From: a virus
Lineage: Duplodnaviria > Heunggongvirae > Uroviricota > Caudoviricetes
Virus record (IMG/VR): IMGVR_UViG_2734482774_000008
DNA length: 6,600 nucleotides
Reading direction: 5' to 3' (one strand)
Position 1 is the first letter of the stretch, and each line of letters opens with the position of its first letter. The notes below the pieces were generated by a model. The model did no database searches. It was not told the DNA's origin and was given only the letters and a program-made list of their open reading frames with translations. The position numbers and the translations under genes are program-made. This document shows, in pieces, positions 1-6,600 of this stretch.

Positions 1-345
1 TTCAGGGGGCCAGTCTAGACAGAATGACGCGATACCGGCTTTCTGTGGCTCGGTCAGTGGAACTTTTATATTGCGCTCCACCCATGCCAGCGCCTTATCA
101 CGCTCAATGGCGTTGACCTGGTCGCATTTTTCCTTCGACAGTTTCATATTGGGAAAAACGTTTTTTCCATCCACCACTGTGGCACCCCGACAGATGGTCC
201 ATATGCCAGAACCATCGCGGTATGCCATTGTGTGGTTACCTTCTTTTTCGTCCAGAAACTGGTCAAGTATCTGAGGAGCAGATGCGCCAGCACCAATCAG
301 CGCCAGAACGGCAGCCGACAGGCCGTATCTGATTTTTGTGTTCAT
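1..345 (-). CDS. SAR endolysin (T4-lysozyme-family phage lysozyme, RrrD/R21-like); 5' portion only (115 codons), continues beyond window position 1
   Basis: Manual translation of the minus strand from ATG at 345..343 gives MNTKIRYGLSAAVLALIGAGASAPQILDQFLDEKEGNHTMAYRDGSGIWTICRG..., open through position 1. Hydrophobic Gly/Ala-rich N-terminus typical of a signal-anchor-release domain, followed by Glu-(8aa)-Asp-(5aa)-Thr spacing matching the T4 lysozyme catalytic triad. The start ATG overlaps the upstream stop (ATGA). Not in the ORF track because it has no stop inside the window. Confidence 0.85.
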   Translation of the reverse strand, partial: MNTKIRYGLSAAVLALIGAGASAPQILDQFLDEKEGNHTMAYRDGSGIWTICRGATVVDGKNVFPNMKLSKEKCDQVNAIERDKALAWVERNIKVPLTEPQKAGIASFCLDWPPE

Positions 346-653
346 AGATATTTATGATGAGGACGCTCGTGCTTATTGGCAGGATTTTCAATCTTAAAGG
401 AGTACTGATGCTGCAGATAAGACTCAACTTTTTCTGACAATTTTTCTGCTACTTCCAGGAAGACTTGCCGGACGCTCATTCTGGCTGCTGCCTCATAAAA
501 CTCCAGCGCAGCTCCTTCAACACGGTCCATGGCGACATCCAGGCCAAAAATTTCACCGTCAAAGCGTTCTTTGTCCTGTAAGGCTACAGTTACCGTAACT
601 TTATTCTCAAAATTACGGACTCCTTTCACAACCAGTTCATAGTCTTGAGTCAT
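342..653 (-). CDS. ydfR: YdfR-like small prophage protein (DUF1327 family as recalled), encoded between holin and endolysin
   Basis: 103-aa ORF with AGGAG Shine-Dalgarno about 9 nt upstream of the ATG. Length, position and sequence match my recollection of E. coli Qin prophage YdfR. Stop overlaps the endolysin start, implying translational coupling. Confidence 0.7.
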   Translation of the reverse strand: MTQDYELVVKGVRNFENKVTVTVALQDKERFDGEIFGLDVAMDRVEGAALEFYEAAARMSVRQVFLEVAEKLSEKVESYLQHQYSFKIENPANKHERPHHKYL

Positions 654-657
654 TGGA

Positions 658-873
658 TTACTCTCCTCTCGCAGCCTTACGCCTGTCTTCTTTAATCTTG
701 AAATAAAGATTTGTCAGATACGTCAGCATGCCAAATACCAGACTACCCAATACACCTATTGCCGCCCACTGTGAGGGCGTGACTTTATCGAGCAACTGTA
801 AAAACCAGTAGCCAGCACTGCCTGCAGAGGTGCTGTAGGCGATGCCCGTTGTTAACTTATCCATGGATTTCAT
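658..873 (-). CDS. essD: Class II holin, S21-type pinholin (EssD/EssQ-like) with dual-start motif
   Basis: Translation from ATG at 873 gives [71 protein letters not shown] (71 aa), closely matching phage 21 S and E. coli EssD as recalled. Two predicted TM segments and a charged C-terminus. GGAGGTG Shine-Dalgarno immediately upstream. The MKSM N-terminus gives two in-frame starts (Met1, Met4). The track's 99-aa ORF carries an unsupported N-terminal extension. Confidence 0.9.
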
Positions 874-963
874 AGCCTCACCTCCGCAGATAACGGATGG
901 TGTACACGGTTTGGTTCGAAGAAGGAAAGAAGTTACATTAGCGTAAGGCCCGAACATCTATTC

Positions 964-994
964 AAAAAGAAAAACGCCAGCAATTATTCTGGCG
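964..994 (-). terminator. Rho-independent terminator downstream of the AraC-family gene (minus-strand orientation)
   Basis: Perfect 6-bp stem CGCCAG/CTGGCG (975..980 and 989..994) with an 8-nt loop. On the minus strand it is followed by TTTTTCTTTTT (complement of 964..974). Sits 70 nt past the AraC stop. Confidence 0.5.
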
Positions 995-1063
995 TAGCTA
1001 AAAATATCGTATAATCTTACACTTCAAAAAATAACTTTATAAAATGCCATCACATCATATCTT

Positions 1064-1777
1064 CTAAGAAAATCTTGATAAATATTGGTGCGGAGGCACA
1101 CCAAAATATCCTCTAAAAACACTTACAAAATATGATGCATTGTCATACCCGCATATTCCCGCCACCTTGCCGACAGTATGGTTACTGTAGATCAATAATC
1201 TTTGCGCCATCATCATTCGTTCTTCAAGAATTAATTTACTAAACGATAATCCTTCGTCTTTTAATTTTCTTTTTAACAAACTCTCGCTCATATATAATCT
1301 TGAAGATATATCACAAAGTCTCCATGACGCTGAGATATCCGAGTGAATAATAGCCTTAACTTTACAACCTAAGCTATTAAGACTTCCGAACAAAAAACTT
1401 TGCACTATTTTCTCTGAAGATAAGACAGCAAGACATGCAAGTGATATTTGATTTCTAACTACATCCACGGTTTTGCTATCACAATTCAAGCATGCAACCA
1501 AGTTCTTTAACAATGAAAAATCTTCACATTCTACTATCAAGTATGACGGATAAAACCTTCTTACAGAAAAAGGTGAGAGTGTGTAGTTTTTAAAGAAATC
1601 ATTAACTGTTTTCTCCTCAACATCTACGATCATTAGATGATCTGTATTTGACGAAAAAAGATCTTTTAAATTGTATTCAATGAGGACAGCATTTCCTTTT
1701 TTAAACAAAATATCTTCTTTACCAATTCGGACACCAAACGAGTTCAACACCAAAATGATAGAATATATGTATGACAT
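1064..1777 (-). CDS. AraC/XylS-family transcriptional regulator (AppY/GadX/YdeO-like), AT-rich horizontally acquired gene
   Basis: C-terminal HTH region ...SESLLKRKLKDEGLSFSKLILEERMMMAQRLLIYSNHTVGKVAGICGYDNASYFVSVFRGYFGVPPHQY is a typical AraC-type double HTH and resembles AppY as recalled. Start placed at ATG 1777 (MSYIYS...), which has an AGGTGG Shine-Dalgarno 5 nt upstream; the track's start at 1786 is GTG. Sampled 60-nt stretches are about one-third G+C, well below flanking genes. Confidence 0.85.
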   Translation of the reverse strand: MSYIYSIILVLNSFGVRIGKEDILFKKGNAVLIEYNLKDLFSSNTDHLMIVDVEEKTVNDFFKNYTLSPFSVRRFYPSYLIVECEDFSLLKNLVACLNCDSKTVDVVRNQISLACLAVLSSEKIVQSFLFGSLNSLGCKVKAIIHSDISASWRLCDISSRLYMSESLLKRKLKDEGLSFSKLILEERMMMAQRLLIYSNHTVGKVAGICGYDNASYFVSVFRGYFGVPPHQYLSRFS

Positions 1778-1990
1778 ATTATCCACCTGATATCATTGGG
1801 GTTACACCAGGTAAGTATAGGTGGAAAATCAATATTCGCCAGTTCAACAATAAGGAAAATCTCATTGCATCACAACTATAAAACCATGTGTTTAACTCAC
1901 AAAAAACAAATCATTAAACTAATCTGTTATATTATAATAGCTGCGTGCAATAATAATATTATATGCTCTTTATATTCACTTGAAATATCT

Positions 1991-2179
1991 TCATATAAAA
2001 ACAGATTGAATAAAATCTTTTGGGGTTGGTATGTTTACCAACATTAAATTGCATCTCAATGTTTTCTTTAGCGTGAACAGGATTTTTATAAAAACTGACA
2101 CTATGAGCATCATAGCGTAGTTTTTACGATTGTAAATATCCTGCATACAGGAACTCATCACTTTCAGATGATATCGCAT
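1991..2179 (-). CDS. Hypothetical small protein (62 aa) between the RudS-like gene and the AraC-family gene; possibly not a real gene
   Basis: ORF begins 5 nt after the RudS-like stop with a weak GGTGA Shine-Dalgarno-like sequence. Contains a hydrophobic stretch (MMLIVSVFIKILFTL). Lies in AT-rich DNA where spurious ORFs are common, with no recognisable homology. Confidence 0.2.
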   Translation of the reverse strand: MRYHLKVMSSCMQDIYNRKNYAMMLIVSVFIKILFTLKKTLRCNLMLVNIPTPKDFIQSVFI

Positions 2180-2183
2180 ACAG

Positions 2184-3143
2184 TTAATTCACCATCAGTC
2201 TTAGAGCCAGTTCTTCCGGATAGGGATCGAAGTAATTCTGTGTAAGCAAGTAATCATTAGGATACTCACCCAGATAATGCTTCAGCAGAGTCAACGGCGC
2301 AAGAAGAGGCAATGTGCCAAAGCGATAGTTAAGTATAACCTCGCTCAACTCTTTACGCTGGCGTGTACTTAAGTAATTACTAAAATACCCCTGTATATGC
2401 ATCAGCACATTCGTGTGATTTTTACGTGATGCTGGTTTTCTGAGAATCGCCATCAGATTATCACGATACACCTCAAAGTATGATTCAAGGTCCGCCCACT
2501 CGTGTATTGCAGCCACAAATGGTCCCATATCTTTATAGCCTGCCTGGCTATGCGCCAACAACTGAAGCTTATAACGACTATGAAAAGCTAATAACTCTCT
2601 TCTTGATAATTTCTCCTTGTAAAGGTGATTGAGCTCATGCAAAGCAAAAACTCTTTCAATAAAATTCTCACGAAGCACTGGATCATGTAATCGCCCATCC
2701 TCTTCAACCGGTAGCCAGGAAAACTTTTCCATCAAAGTGCTCGTAAATAGTCCCACTCCATCTTTACGACCTCGATTACCATTTTCATCATAGACACGCA
2801 CGCGCTCCATGCCACAGCTGGGAGATTTAGCACAAACCACAAACCCCGATACATCCTTTAATTTGTCCATATAAGAACGACTAAACTCTGTCATTCTCTC
2901 TGTCACATCCTCATTCTGGTCGTGGCTGAAACACATCCGTATATTTCCTTGCTTCGAGCGCACAAGTCGTAGAGCAGGACGCGGAACTGGCAGCCCTATA
3001 GCCATTTCCGGACATACTGGTCTGAATGTTACCCATTCCACTAATTTGTCCATTAAAAAGTCATCTCTTTTGTGACCACCATCAAAACGAACAGCAGAAC
3101 CGCCCAAACAACCGCTGATCCCAATCACAGGTTTTTTTATCAT
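2184..3143 (-). CDS. TudS(DUF523)-DUF1722 fusion protein, RudS-like [4Fe-4S] thiouracil / tRNA 4-thiouridine desulfidase
   Basis: 319 aa. N-terminal half carries the TudS signature: Cys12 (GISGCLGG), Cys44-Pro-Glu46 (VCPE), and Ser107-Pro-Ser109-Cys110-Gly (KSPSCG), matching the three cluster-ligating Cys plus catalytic Glu/Ser as recalled. C-terminal half resembles YbgA-type DUF1722, ending ...YFDPYPEELALRLMVN. Strong GGGGGAGGAA Shine-Dalgarno before the ATG at 3143. Confidence 0.85.
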   Translation of the reverse strand: MIKKPVIGISGCLGGSAVRFDGGHKRDDFLMDKLVEWVTFRPVCPEMAIGLPVPRPALRLVRSKQGNIRMCFSHDQNEDVTERMTEFSRSYMDKLKDVSGFVVCAKSPSCGMERVRVYDENGNRGRKDGVGLFTSTLMEKFSWLPVEEDGRLHDPVLRENFIERVFALHELNHLYKEKLSRRELLAFHSRYKLQLLAHSQAGYKDMGPFVAAIHEWADLESYFEVYRDNLMAILRKPASRKNHTNVLMHIQGYFSNYLSTRQRKELSEVILNYRFGTLPLLAPLTLLKHYLGEYPNDYLLTQNYFDPYPEELALRLMVN

Positions 3144-3335
3144 TTCCTCCCCCTTGACTAATTCATTAACACATAAACTTTGTAGTGCACGGACTAAATT
3201 GCCTTTCTGGCTTCATCACTGACAATTTTTCTGTTATTGACTATTCCTAATATAGTAGGAAAGTTCTTTAAGTGATCGGTCGTACTCATCTATCTTTCAT
3301 ACTTACTCTCAACTATCAAAAGTACAGGATTTATT
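3144..3335. promoter_or_regulatory. Divergent intergenic region expected to hold the promoters of the RudS-like gene (minus) and the blc-like gene (plus)
   Basis: 192-bp non-coding spacer between divergent start codons. Contains TTGACT hexamers (3155..3160 and 3236..3241) and a TATAGT hexamer (3251..3256), but I could not pair them into a promoter with canonical spacing. Confidence 0.35.
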
Positions 3336-3860
3336 ATGAAGTTATGGCCTGTGTTGACTGGCATTGCACTCTCTTTCACTCTTATAGCATGTAAGGCCCC
3401 GACACCACCTAAAGGTGTGCAGCCGATTACAAATTTTGACGCCAACCGCTACCTCGGAAAATGGTATGAAATAGCTCGCCTCGAGAACTGGTTCGAACGT
3501 GGTCTGGAACAGGTCAGCGCTACTTATGAAAAACGGAACGACGGAGGGATTCGCGTACTTAACCGTGGATACGATCCAACGAAAAACAAATGGAGCGAGA
3601 GCGAAGGTAAAGCATACTTTACTGGAGATACTAAAACTGCAGCGTTGAAAGTTTCGTTTTTTGGCCCCTTCTATGGTGGCTATAATGTAATCAAACTGGA
3701 TGATGAGTATAAGTATGCTCTTGTCAGTGGTCCGAACAGAGAATACCTATGGATTCTGGCAAGGACCCAAACTATTCCAGATAATGTAAAAGCAGACTAT
3801 GTGCGTACCGCTCAAAAGTTGGGATTCAATGTCAATGAACTATTATGGGTTAAACAATAA
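3336..3860 (+). CDS. blc: Outer-membrane lipoprotein lipocalin, Blc paralogue
   Basis: 174 aa. Signal peptide with lipobox LIAC (Cys19) and Lys at +2. Lipocalin SCR1 motif NFDANRYLGKWYEIAR and the block KAYFTGDTKTAALKVSFFGPFYGGYNVI closely resemble E. coli Blc as recalled (about 60 percent identity estimated by eye, so a paralogue). AGGA Shine-Dalgarno 6 nt upstream. Confidence 0.9.
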   Translation: MKLWPVLTGIALSFTLIACKAPTPPKGVQPITNFDANRYLGKWYEIARLENWFERGLEQVSATYEKRNDGGIRVLNRGYDPTKNKWSESEGKAYFTGDTKTAALKVSFFGPFYGGYNVIKLDDEYKYALVSGPNREYLWILARTQTIPDNVKADYVRTAQKLGFNVNELLWVKQ

Positions 3861-3888
3861 AATCCCCACCCGAAATGATACTTATTAG

Positions 3889-3915
3889 AAAAAAACCAGC
3901 CTTTGGGGAGGCTGG
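3889..3915 (-). terminator. Rho-independent terminator in minus-strand orientation, about 100 nt downstream of the Q gene (tR'-like position)
   Basis: Perfect 7-bp stem CCAGCCT/AGGCTGG (3896..3902 and 3909..3915) with a 6-nt loop. On the minus strand it is followed by seven T (complement of A-run 3889..3895). On the plus strand there is no T-run after the hairpin, so it is at best a weak terminator for blc. Confidence 0.55.
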
Positions 3916-4015
3916 CTAAATCAGGAAACAAGCTGTTATATGATAATAACTACGTTGCGATTCCAACATTTAAAATGTTAGACTAATGAAAATCAGACAG
4001 CAACTTTTCCTTTAA

Positions 4016-4393
4016 TTATTTCGAACAATCAGCATCCATCTCCAATCGGAGATCCAACACCATCAGCATGCCCTCCACTACGCCCTCAGCTTTCTGGAGC
4101 ATCCTGCCAACCCAACAATCAGATCGCCCATGCTTATGTGCAAGCGCCATAAAAGTCATGCCGCCGACATAATAGTCCACCAATAAATCATGTAAATCGC
4201 TGTTGTTTTTTTTCAGGCGAGCCATACATTCACAAATGATCATCGCGTCATCGTCACAGCATTGCGGACGAGATCTTACTTTTGAAGGAATTAATCCCTT
4301 AAAACCGGCGGCAATGGACGACCAGGTCACATCTTCATGATTATTAGCCGCCCATGCCCCCCAACGCTCAAGAACCATCTGAATATCACGCAT
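4016..4393 (-). CDS. Late-gene antitermination protein Q (phage 82 Q / QuuD-like)
   Basis: Translation from ATG 4393 gives [34 protein letters not shown]...[34 protein letters not shown]... (125 aa), matching Q82-family antiterminators such as E. coli QuuD as recalled. GGAG Shine-Dalgarno 7 nt upstream. The track's start at 4408 is a TTG-initiated extension. Confidence 0.85.
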
Positions 4394-4410
4394 CAACTTA
4401 CTCCACAAAA

Positions 4411-5028
4411 TTAGGCCAGCACACCAATTGCCAGCGCGCGATCGATAAATCGAAAAATCAGCTCCAGTTGGGAGCCATACTTCTCTTCAAATGCCACGGT
4501 ATCCGTATGCAACTCGTCGTGATGCTTTCTGCACAAAGGCAAAACAAAGAGATCATGTGCTTTGGTTCCCATTCCGCCCTGCCCGTGACCAATCAGATGA
4601 TGCGGATCGTCGGCTGGCATACCGCAGCAAGCACACGGCTGTGTCTTAACCCAGCGTGTGTATTTCTCCTTAACCCACCGGTGACGTTTAGGCAGCTTCA
4701 TGAAAGATTCCGGAGACTCTGGATCAACGGTGATGCTTACCACCGTCTTTTCCTGTGATGGGTTTTGTTGCTGGTGGGCGTGAGGCAACGGTGCAAGATT
4801 TTTTGTGCGCTGTTTCAATATGCTGGTGGCGGTCTGCTCTCCCGGTACGATGTCGCTTTCGCGGTACACCGAGCAGATTTTTTCCGCTGGTAATCCCAGC
4901 GAGCGACGTAATACCGCTTCCGGTAGCGCGTCCGCCAGCTGATTGCGGACCGCCCACCAGGATAATTCAGCCAGAGATAATTCACGCTCCTGCGTACCGC
5001 TTATTGCGTGACCGATGACGTCAATCAT
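4411..5028 (-). CDS. YdfU-like prophage protein with Cys/His-rich C-terminal domain (DUF968 as recalled); N-terminus possibly truncated or replaced
   Basis: 205-aa ORF immediately upstream of Q on the same strand. C-terminal block [49 protein letters not shown] has a CxxC...HH...C..HH metal-binding pattern. No convincing Shine-Dalgarno before the ATG at 5028, which lies 2 bp from the divergent xis-like start. Confidence 0.65.
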
Positions 5029-5030
5029 CC

Positions 5031-5285
5031 ATGCTGACAGGTTTTGATGAGCAAGTTGCTCGAGTGATTCGGATATCCGAAGAGCAGTTAATTGCGCTGA
5101 AAGGAATAAAAAAAGGTACGTTAAAAAAGGCCCGGGAAAAATCGTTTATGGAAGGAAGGGAATATAAGCATGTCGCTCATGACGGTATGCCATGGGATAA
5201 CAGTCCATGCTTTTACAACCTGGAAGAAATTGATCGCTGGATTGAGCGCCAGGCATCAGCAAGACCAAGACGTCATCTTACTTGA
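5031..5285 (+). CDS. Excisionase-like small DNA-binding protein (Xis-like), upstream of and co-oriented with the integrase
   Basis: 84-aa ORF ending 34 nt before the integrase start. Contains EGREYKHVAHDG, resembling the DGREYLFHESA wing region of lambda Xis as recalled, at a similar distance from the N-terminus. No clear Shine-Dalgarno, so the exact start is uncertain. Confidence 0.55.
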   Translation: MLTGFDEQVARVIRISEEQLIALKGIKKGTLKKAREKSFMEGREYKHVAHDGMPWDNSPCFYNLEEIDRWIERQASARPRRHLT

Positions 5286-5319
5286 CTAAAAGCCACACTA
5301 ACTAATGAGAGAAGTTGAA

Positions 5320-6600
5320 ATGAAATATCCGACAGGCGTGGAAAACCATGGAGGGAAATTACGTATCTGGTTTGTTTATAAAGGCGTAAGAGTCAGGGAA
5401 AATCTGGGGGTTCCTGACACAGCAAAAAACAGGCGCGTTGCAGGTGAACTACGCTCCTCTGTTTGTTACGCAATAAAAACTGGTGTTTTCGACTATGCAA
5501 AACAGTTTCCCTCCTCACGCAATCTGGAAAAATTTGGTGAGGCCCGACAAGATTTAACCATAAAAGAACTGGCTGAAAAATTTCTGGCACTGAAAGAAAC
5601 TGAAGTCGCCAAAACATCACTCAACACATACCGTGCCGTCATCAAAAATATCCTGAGCATAATCGGTGAAAAAAATCTTGCCTCATCGATTAATAAAGAA
5701 AAATTACTGGAGGTTCGTAAAGAGCTACTGACTGGATACCAGATCCCCAAAAGTAACTATATTGTTACACAACCAGGGAGATCGGCTGTAACTGTAAATA
5801 ATTACATGACAAATCTTAACGCCGTGTTCCAGTTTGGTGTTGATAACGGTTACCTGGCAGATAACCCGTTTAAGGGGATCTCGCCATTAAAGGAATCAAG
5901 AACCATTCCGGATCCTCTTTCGCGGGAGGAATTCATCCGTCTTATCGATGCGTGCAGAAATCAGCAAGCCAAAAATTTATGGTGTGTTTCTGTTTATACT
6001 GGCGTTCGCCCTGGTGAGCTGTGTGCACTTGGATGGGAGGACATAGATCTGAAAAATGGAACAATGATGATCAGGAGAAATTTAGCAAAAGACCGTTTCA
6101 CGGTCCCAAAAACACAGGCGGGAACCAATCGGGTCATTCATCTTATTAAGCCAGCAATCGACGCTCTCCGGAGTCAGATGACATTAACGAGACTGAGCAA
6201 AGAGCATATCATTGATGTTCACCTCAGAGAGTATGGCAGAACAGAAAAACATAAATGCACCTTTGTTTTTCAACCTGAAGTGTCAGCGAGAGTAAAAAAT
6301 TATGGTGACCATTTTACCGTTGACTCAATAAGGCAGATGTGGGACGCAGCGATAAAACGTGCCGGACTCCGCCATCGAAAATCATATCAGTCGAGACATA
6401 CTTATGCCTGCTGGTCGCTGACAGCTGGTGCTAACCCGGCATTTATAGCAAACCAGATGGGCCATGCAGATGCGCAAATGGTATTTCAGGTATACGGAAA
6501 ATGGATGTCTGAAAACAATAATGCACAGGTAGCTTTGTTAAATACACAGTTAAGCGAGTTTGCCCCAACCATGCCCCATAACGAAGCAATGAAAAATTAA
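5320..6600 (+). CDS. int: Phage tyrosine integrase (Rac IntR-like, with N-terminal arm-binding-type domain)
   Basis: Translation from ATG 5320 (GAGAGA purine-rich stretch upstream) gives MKYPTGVENHGGKLRIWFVYKGVRVRENLG..., resembling the IntR-type N-terminal domain as recalled. C-terminal catalytic signatures present: TGVRPGEL (Arg), SRHTYACWSL (Arg-His), GHADAQMVFQVYGKW (His and catalytic Tyr). Stop codon is the last three bases of the window. Confidence 0.9.
   Translation: MKYPTGVENHGGKLRIWFVYKGVRVRENLGVPDTAKNRRVAGELRSSVCYAIKTGVFDYAKQFPSSRNLEKFGEARQDLTIKELAEKFLALKETEVAKTSLNTYRAVIKNILSIIGEKNLASSINKEKLLEVRKELLTGYQIPKSNYIVTQPGRSAVTVNNYMTNLNAVFQFGVDNGYLADNPFKGISPLKESRTIPDPLSREEFIRLIDACRNQQAKNLWCVSVYTGVRPGELCALGWEDIDLKNGTMMIRRNLAKDRFTVPKTQAGTNRVIHLIKPAIDALRSQMTLTRLSKEHIIDVHLREYGRTEKHKCTFVFQPEVSARVKNYGDHFTVDSIRQMWDAAIKRAGLRHRKSYQSRHTYACWSLTAGANPAFIANQMGHADAQMVFQVYGKWMSENNNAQVALLNTQLSEFAPTMPHNEAMKN

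Follow-up and report, generated by a model that had tools for sequence, protein, structure and literature searches.

This analysis concerns a stretch of 6,600 nucleotides from the IMG/VR virus record IMGVR_UViG_2734482774_000008, referred to here as the window, and a gene on its minus strand that encodes a regulator of the AraC/XylS family. The window holds a lambdoid prophage of the Qin type that has decayed, and the regulator gene is the last of three cargo genes (lipocalin, RudS, and regulator) between the antiterminator gene Q and the holin gene. The original prediction, which was made from the sequence letters, had placed the gene in a prophage, and this is supported by the Q and phage 21-type holin genes that flank it and by xis and int at the right end of the window. 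The longest open reading frame at the locus spans 1064..1786 and begins with GTG. For identical genes in complete genomes, RefSeq has chosen the ATG at 1777 as the start, which gives 237 codons plus a stop. Since this ATG follows a Shine-Dalgarno-like AGGTGG, the predicted gene boundaries of 1064..1777 stand.

The regulator gene has a G+C content of 33.2%, and the 406-bp spacer upstream of it 30.8%, compared with 43–47% in the flanking phage genes and 42.5% in the window. The low G+C that had been noted earlier is therefore real. Both the gene and the spacer are AT-rich relative to the host genome in the manner of H-NS targets; the mean G+C of the Escherichia coli chromosome is ~51%. The regulator is a real protein-coding gene under purifying selection, as indicated by a ratio of nonsynonymous to synonymous substitution rates (dN/dS) of 0.22–0.27 among allele classes with 85% and 76% protein identity. 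The ratio is 0.12–0.18 in the DNA-binding half and 0.32–0.55 in the N-terminal half.

Residues 161–237 of the regulator match the Pfam profile HTH_18 (E = 3e-16, 59.9 bits, cut-off 33.6), and HTH_AraC is also matched (E = 6e-11, 42.6 bits, cut-off 26.6). Pfam and a structure model agree on the C-terminal region of ~100 residues with two helix-turn-helix (HTH) motifs that characterizes the AraC/XylS family. The protein is divided into a ToxT/Rns-like N-terminal domain (residues ~1–134) and a DNA-binding domain with two HTH motifs (~135–237). Residues 1–135 have no Pfam match at E ≤ 0.01, including AraC_binding and other cupin profiles, and the profiles of AraC and RhaS/RhaR match weakly, only or mainly in the HTH region. 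The best homologs are thus not sugar-responsive regulators with a cupin domain, the alternative that the original prediction had held against itself. RefSeq names the protein only “helix-turn-helix domain-containing protein”.

Pairwise BLASTP comparisons with references extracted from MG1655 and the O157:H7 strain ATCC 43894 place the regulator in the PatE/Psr/GadW/AppY/YdeO clade (Table 1). The term “presumed PsrB” is used for the sole AraC-like gene in the fetched OI-57 region, which has been named by its position. The alignments with PatE, the presumed PsrB, GadW, AppY, and YdeO are collinear and cover at least residues 1–230. The AppY/YdeO/GadX-type affiliation suggested earlier is confirmed by these full-length matches, and the proteins proposed for the comparison (PatE, PsrB as presumed here, AppY, YdeO, and GadX) are indeed the best characterized relatives, with GadX matching through its DNA-binding domain only. 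The best NCBIfam profile is YdeO (residues 4–234), followed by GadX, HilD, and HilC. Because the YdeO and GadX scores (109 and 90 bits) are far below the equivalog cut-offs of 348 and 500 bits, the regulator is an ortholog of no named regulator. It stands in a subfamily of its own, in which the allele classes are 76–100% identical.

Table 1. Protein identity between the regulator and its named relatives.
Relative	Identity	Extent of match	DNA-binding domain	N-terminal domain
PatE	47%	full length (E = 1e-74)	65%	34%
Presumed PsrB	37%	full length	54%	23%
GadW	33%	full length	46%	24%
AppY	29%	full length	39%	22%
YdeO	29%	full length	41%	18%
EnvY	31%	partial	43%	13%
GadX	41%	C-terminal domain only	41%	15%
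YbcM	23%	C-terminal region only (residues 107–231)		

The closest characterized relative is PatE (Z0321, OI-8, EDL933), which is also prophage-borne and AT-rich (35% G+C and 247 aa, compared with 33% and 237 aa for the regulator). The first recognition helix, SESLLKRKLK, is the same in both proteins. PatE and its phage homologs differ in position; they are located between tail-fibre genes and int, without rudS or blc, whereas the regulator lies between Q and the holin gene. The targets of PatE (gadE, hdeAB, and genes of the locus of enterocyte effacement) are established, while those of the regulator are inferred. PsrB and PsrA (Z2104 and Z1789 in EDL933) are likewise AraC-like and prophage-borne. 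The presumed PsrB shares with the regulator a length of 237 aa and the slot between a Q-like antiterminator gene and the holin gene. On the other hand, it is a remoter relative than PatE, has 44% G+C, and has tRNA genes rather than rudS and blc as neighbors, being located between the Q-like gene and these tRNA genes. PsrA (z1789) has been assigned to OI-50 in reviews; tblastn with 12 family members found no AraC-like sequence in 70 kb spanning OI-50/OI-51 of ATCC 43894. At 1,625,000–1,675,000 in this genome, the site that matches that of the presumed PsrB holds only a TerB pseudogene.

The K-12 proteins GadW, AppY, YdeO, GadX, AdiY, and EnvY have the clade and the architecture in common with the regulator. 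They share with it an N-terminal xxxCS(V/I) strand, the SESL(L/I)K helix, and a CGYxSxSYF motif. AppY, too, is encoded in a prophage (DLP12) by an AT-rich gene (32% G+C). The sequences are nevertheless remote: GadW, AppY, and YdeO are only 29–33% identical to the regulator, and GadX, EnvY, and AdiY are lower or match in the C-terminal domain only. Lys170 of AppY, which is needed for DNA binding (PMC10057817), is conserved as Lys169 in the regulator. The 8-bp AppY motif ATGSCWGM is uninformative here, with ~1.6 matches expected by chance in the window.

Among solved structures, the best sequence match is the DNA-binding domain of GadX (E = 4e-21), followed by CsvR, Rns, and ToxT (E = 1e-17 to 1e-11). 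An AlphaFold2 model of the regulator, built from an alignment of 11 sequences, has a mean predicted local distance difference test score of 78.8 and a predicted template-modelling (TM) score of 0.68, with low confidence in residues ~61–110. Full-length Foldseek matches of the model are CsvR, Rns, and ToxT. The TM score of these matches is only ~0.45 because the domains are placed differently in the model. The model of the DNA-binding domain superposes on that of GadX (3mkl) with a TM score of 0.86–0.89 and a root-mean-square deviation of 1.2–1.5 Å, and also on that of MarA. Rns, CsvR, and ToxT have the same two-domain plan as the regulator, with a small beta-rich N-terminal domain and a double HTH, at only ~20% identity.

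The coordinates of the features in the window are given in Table 2. In complete genomes, the block with the cassette is found between ydfI/ydfJ and rspB, which is the position of Qin. The interval between Q and the holin gene holds cspF, cspB, and ynfU in K-12 Qin and nmpC in DLP12, so this interval is an exchangeable cargo slot, with an occupant that varies among close relatives as expected of a moron. The regulator also has its own terminator and a composition unlike that of the phage backbone. Being bracketed by two terminator-like structures on the strand of the late transcript, it has the anatomy of a moron.

Table 2. Features of the window (6,600 nucleotides) and the evidence for them.
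Feature	Position	Strand	Evidence or remark
ydfR	342-653	-	open reading frame listing, Pfam
Class II (phage 21 S-type) holin, essQ/essD-like; first lysis gene 3' of the cassette	658..873	-	PF04971; annotated 216 bp
Intrinsic-terminator-like hairpin and U-run, 3' of the regulator and just 5' of the holin gene	974..995	-	scan, fold, conservation
AraC/XylS-family regulator, PatE/Psr/GadW/AppY/YdeO clade	1064..1777	-	open reading frame, Pfam, NCBIfam, BLASTP, model, dN/dS
Spacer 5' of the regulator, 406 bp; candidate promoter/H-NS-binding region	1778..2183	-	30.8% G+C
Shine-Dalgarno-like AGGTGG, 6 nt 5' of ATG 1777	1784..1789	-	read from sequence; invariant in three allele classes
Promoter-like TTGTGA-16-TATAGT	1902..1875	-	hexamer scan
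Hairpin between A-run and U-run, directly after the rudS stop	2090..2125	-	-14.1 kcal/mol, z = -4.5; partly conserved
Promoter-like TTTACA-16-TATGAT	2136..2109	-	hexamer scan; conserved; overlaps the hairpin
RudS-type gene, TudS desulfidase domain and DUF1722, 319 aa	2184..3143	-	PF04463 and PF08349
Blc-like outer-membrane lipocalin, 174 aa	3336..3860	+	NCBIfam Blc subfamily, 312.6 bits (cut-off 267)
Terminator-like hairpin and U-run, ~100 nt 3' of Q, just past the blc stop (other strand)	3894..3917	-	-14.9 kcal/mol, z = -3.4
Antiterminator Q, 125 aa in RefSeq	4016..4393	-	PF06530, E = 1.6e-50; longest open reading frame to 4408
DUF968 (ydfU) fragment, truncated	4411-5028	-	adjoins xis
xis	5031-5285	+	right end of window
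int	5305-6600	+	right end of window

A terminator had been predicted at 964..994, and a terminator scan places the hairpin and U-run at 995..974 (minus strand), reading ACGCCAGAATAATTGCTGGCGT and then TTTTCTTTTT. The hairpin has a folding energy of -11.3 kcal/mol (z = -2.5) and is kept in three allele classes despite differing flanks. At the other end of the spacer, the hairpin at 2125..2090 is probably the terminator of rudS and would part rudS from the transcription unit of the regulator. The promoter-like element at 2136..2109 at first suggested a conserved promoter; it overlaps this strong hairpin and U-run, for which the rudS terminator is the simpler explanation. By analogy with other lambdoid phages, the hairpin at 3917..3894 is probably tR', the terminator that is overridden by Q, and it could double as the terminator of blc.

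The activities of the relatives suggest a function for the regulator. PatE and PsrB activate gadE and hdeAB, and the region of the hdeA promoter from -132 to -45 is bound by PsrB and is the region through which PatE acts (PMC10877973). AppY binds gadE, gadY, slp, adiC, and glsA directly, and the expression of appY depends on H-NS, RpoS, ArcA, and DpiAB (PMC10057817). We lean, with modest confidence, towards the view that the regulator is a mobile, probably H-NS-repressed activator that feeds the acid-fitness island, as its relatives do. In a lysogen, H-NS would hold down the AT-rich regulator gene and spacer until a stress or stationary-phase signal leads to transcription from the regulator’s own promoter. 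The two HTH motifs would then bind AT-rich sites at host acid-fitness-island promoters, such as those of gadE and hdeAB, and activate them. In these steps we infer the silencing (by analogy with appY), the promoter, the targets, and any ligand.

Upon prophage induction, the Q-modified RNA polymerase would read through the regulator gene from the late promoter. Transcription by this polymerase in lytic growth is expected because the gene is on the late strand, 3' of Q and of a pR'/tR'-like element. From this anatomy, the lysogen would be expected to express the gene only weakly by itself, with read-through upon induction. It had been suggested that the regulator, having its own terminator, may act as a stand-alone regulator of host genes. 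The terminator is confirmed, and the gene looks like a classical moron, a cargo gene added to the phage backbone, rather than a unit kept apart from phage transcription.

Several points weigh against a role in acid resistance. The targets proposed for the regulator are taken over from PatE because the DNA-binding domains are 65% identical, and from that comparison only, so that the assignment of gad and hde promoters is one of homology. An identity of 65% in this domain gives no guarantee of shared target sites. In the N-terminal domain, identity to PatE is only 34%, and the input signal may therefore differ. PsrA, a close relative of PsrB, reportedly brings no gain in acid survival and, if this is correct, the phenotype does not follow from the clade to which a protein belongs. 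Promoter-like hexamers near the regulator are not in excess (13, compared with 10.9 ± 3.1 in shuffled sequences). Finally, the copy in the window carries a Cys5 to Tyr replacement which could impair the protein.

A broader version of the acid-resistance proposal is that this widespread regulator plugs into the GadE/HdeA circuit, that RudS and the lipocalin form with it a “stress-protection” conversion cassette, and that the ToxT/Rns-like domain senses a small molecule or pH. We regard this version as rather doubtful. The linkage between the cassette genes is strong within the subfamily. The regulator, RudS, Blc, Q, and holin genes are found together in 70 of 80 IMG/VR contigs, and the other 10 are cut by the contig end, so the linkage holds at every locus with enough flanking sequence. 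It is common to the three allele classes and to isolated phages.

This linkage would be expected of a regulator that is local to the cassette, sensing a signal and controlling rudS and/or blc or its own promoter. In ToxT and Rns, the N-terminal domain binds fatty acids; a domain of this type encoded beside the gene for a lipocalin would suit such a role. We nevertheless consider it unlikely. The RudS/Blc linkage is confined to the regulator’s own subfamily: P0013, which is 59% identical to the regulator, directly follows a lambda-type Q without RudS or Blc, and the PatE-like genes and the presumed PsrB sit elsewhere, as described above. These differing phage sites show that the clade has repeatedly been acquired as phage cargo, often in the slot between Q and the holin gene. 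Furthermore, the strong hairpin at 2125..2090 lies between rudS and the regulator, and the characterized members of the clade all act at distant host promoters.

The comparison of allele classes also argues against a local circuit. In the complete E. coli genomes, the regulator has allele classes with ~99%, ~89%, and ~82% nucleotide identity. Between allele classes, the RudS, Blc, and Q proteins are 97–100% identical and the regulator 84–92% (IMG/VR loci L097–L176 compared with the window). With RudS, Blc, and Q stable and the regulator diverged, the regulator is the fast-changing or recombining part of the cassette, which points to independent exchange rather than co-evolution. Between the allele in the window and the ~89% class, the synonymous divergence of the regulator rises from 0.11 in the N-terminal half to 0.71 in the C-terminal half. 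This contrast suggests intragenic recombination or mosaicism inside the regulator gene.

It has also to be considered whether the copy in the window has lost its function and is in decay. Deletion has taken much of the prophage around it. DUF968 (ydfU) has 205 codons here compared with 349 in intact Qin, and since the truncated gene abuts the divergent xis-int, a single deletion has removed the whole replication, immunity, and recombination region; what remains is int-xis, Q, the cargo cassette, and the lysis genes. Codon 5 of the regulator (1763..1765) encodes Tyr, while Cys is present here in 78 of 78 IMG/VR copies and in all allele classes. The equivalent Cys is also found in the alignment with PatE, the presumed PsrB, GadW, AppY, YdeO, GadX, and EnvY, and the model places the residue in the beta strand with which the N-terminal domain begins. 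However, the reading frame is complete, and both the Shine-Dalgarno sequence and the terminator are intact. Besides Tyr5, the protein differs from the common allele only by Ser2, at a position that is polymorphic among phage copies (Pro in 23 of 29, Ser in 6). The exact Tyr5 protein is present on 20 assembled contigs and is therefore a real variant of a propagating lineage, not a sequencing error. Decay of this copy is thus improbable in our estimate, although Tyr at an otherwise invariant position speaks for it.

A regulator that serves the life cycle of the phage (lysis and late genes or the lysis-lysogeny decision) without host conversion is the least probable explanation, for although the gene is directly 5' of the holin gene, on the late-transcript strand and 3' of Q, and relatives recur in the Q-to-holin position with three antiterminator types, this slot is filled by unrelated cargo in related prophages (cspB/cspF, nmpC) and by the stx genes in Stx phages, and is therefore a cargo site rather than a regulatory module; moreover, lambdoid phages without the gene are viable, its G+C is foreign to the phage backbone, and it has stayed intact in a remnant that no longer has genes for replication, immunity, or structure, as would be better explained by selection at the level of the host. 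An activator of host acid-fitness genes remains the explanation that we prefer.

The regulator is frequent in E. coli. Full-length copies were found in 884 of 5426 complete genomes by megablast and in 996 by blastn, and the cassette is present in ~17–18% of the complete genomes. All megablast places are chromosomal; of the 1747 places found by the more sensitive blastn, which include distant relatives, four are on plasmids. The carriers are from humans, poultry, pigs, dogs, frogs, and water. The other allele classes also occur within this cassette; their prophages are DLP12-like or lambda-like and have complete structural genes. Phages that have been isolated (IdasGreatGrand, 1H12, and the Lambda_ev series) carry the cassette as well. 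The window is not present as a single contiguous piece in any complete RefSeq E. coli genome. The draft genome GCA_000797875.1 has an identical regulator protein and the order rspB-int-xis-Q-lipocalin-RudS-regulator-holin.

In a search in which each bacterial species was represented by one genome, no match outside E. coli-type sequence exceeded 34% identity to the regulator. The relatives at or below this level are orthologs of GadW, AppY, YdeO, and AdiY in Escherichia, Citrobacter, Salmonella, Edwardsiella, and Hafnia. Under the label Candidatus Nanosynbacter, a metagenome-assembled genome has one contig (JARKOR010000151.1) with a regulator (84%), RudS (92%), and holin (94%), and a second, YdeO-like locus. 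The cassette under this label is almost certainly a binning contaminant, as it carries E. coli phage genes. A Salmonella SPI-2 pair of an AraC-like gene and RudS (ORF242 and ORF319) was considered and dropped as unconfirmed; the Salmonella match is adiY between adiA and adiC, and none of the AraC relatives at the 79 genome loci that are not of E. coli-type sequence has a RudS, Blc, Q, or holin gene beside it.

A prophage-borne, AraC-like regulator of the acid-resistance clade is of a well-known kind, to which this regulator is an uncharacterized addition. AppY, PatE, and PsrA/B are textbook cases of phage genes that rewire a core host stress regulon, and the cases studied are from K-12 or O157:H7. 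A further six homologs of Psr are mentioned elsewhere (PMC10877973), and overlap with the regulator is possible. In the literature, we found nothing on the regulator subfamily, on the cassette as a unit, or on the AraC gene of Qin, although a mention in Tree et al. 2011 is possible. The subfamily is common (~880–1000 of the 5426 complete genomes) and is also present on phages isolated as infective particles. If the regulator does activate gadE and hdeA, it would modify acid survival, and perhaps the expression of virulence genes, in a way that is both frequent and transferable. About one in six E. coli genomes would then be affected, and acid resistance would be widely rewired by phages among strains from commensal and livestock settings, beyond enterohaemorrhagic E. 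coli. If it does not, the regulator is merely another annotated “helix-turn-helix protein”. In either case, its fixed tie to the experimentally studied RudS provides a defined cassette for asking whether phage cargo genes cooperate.

Some observations concern the rest of the window. Scans for Rfam families and tRNAs gave nothing over threshold. Positions 18..6600 are matched at 99.8–100% by complete E. coli genomes, while 1..17 lie outside all megablast matches. In strain ECCWS199, ISVsa5 breaks the lysozyme gene just past ydfR, and a rearrangement or insertion sequence junction near the left end of the window is possible. The Blc-like gene is convergent with Q, and any Q-antiterminated late transcript would run antisense through blc.

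RudS removes 4-thiouridine from tRNA, and RudS_vir, the product of the phage 1H12 gene, is among the RudS variants that have been tested (PMC11417400). The rudS gene in the window has ~91% nucleotide identity to this phage gene. E. coli has been said to have no TudS/RudS homologs (PMC11417400). In contrast, matches to the DNA of the regulator are present in 923 of the 5426 complete E. coli genomes and are linked to RudS where the flanks suffice.

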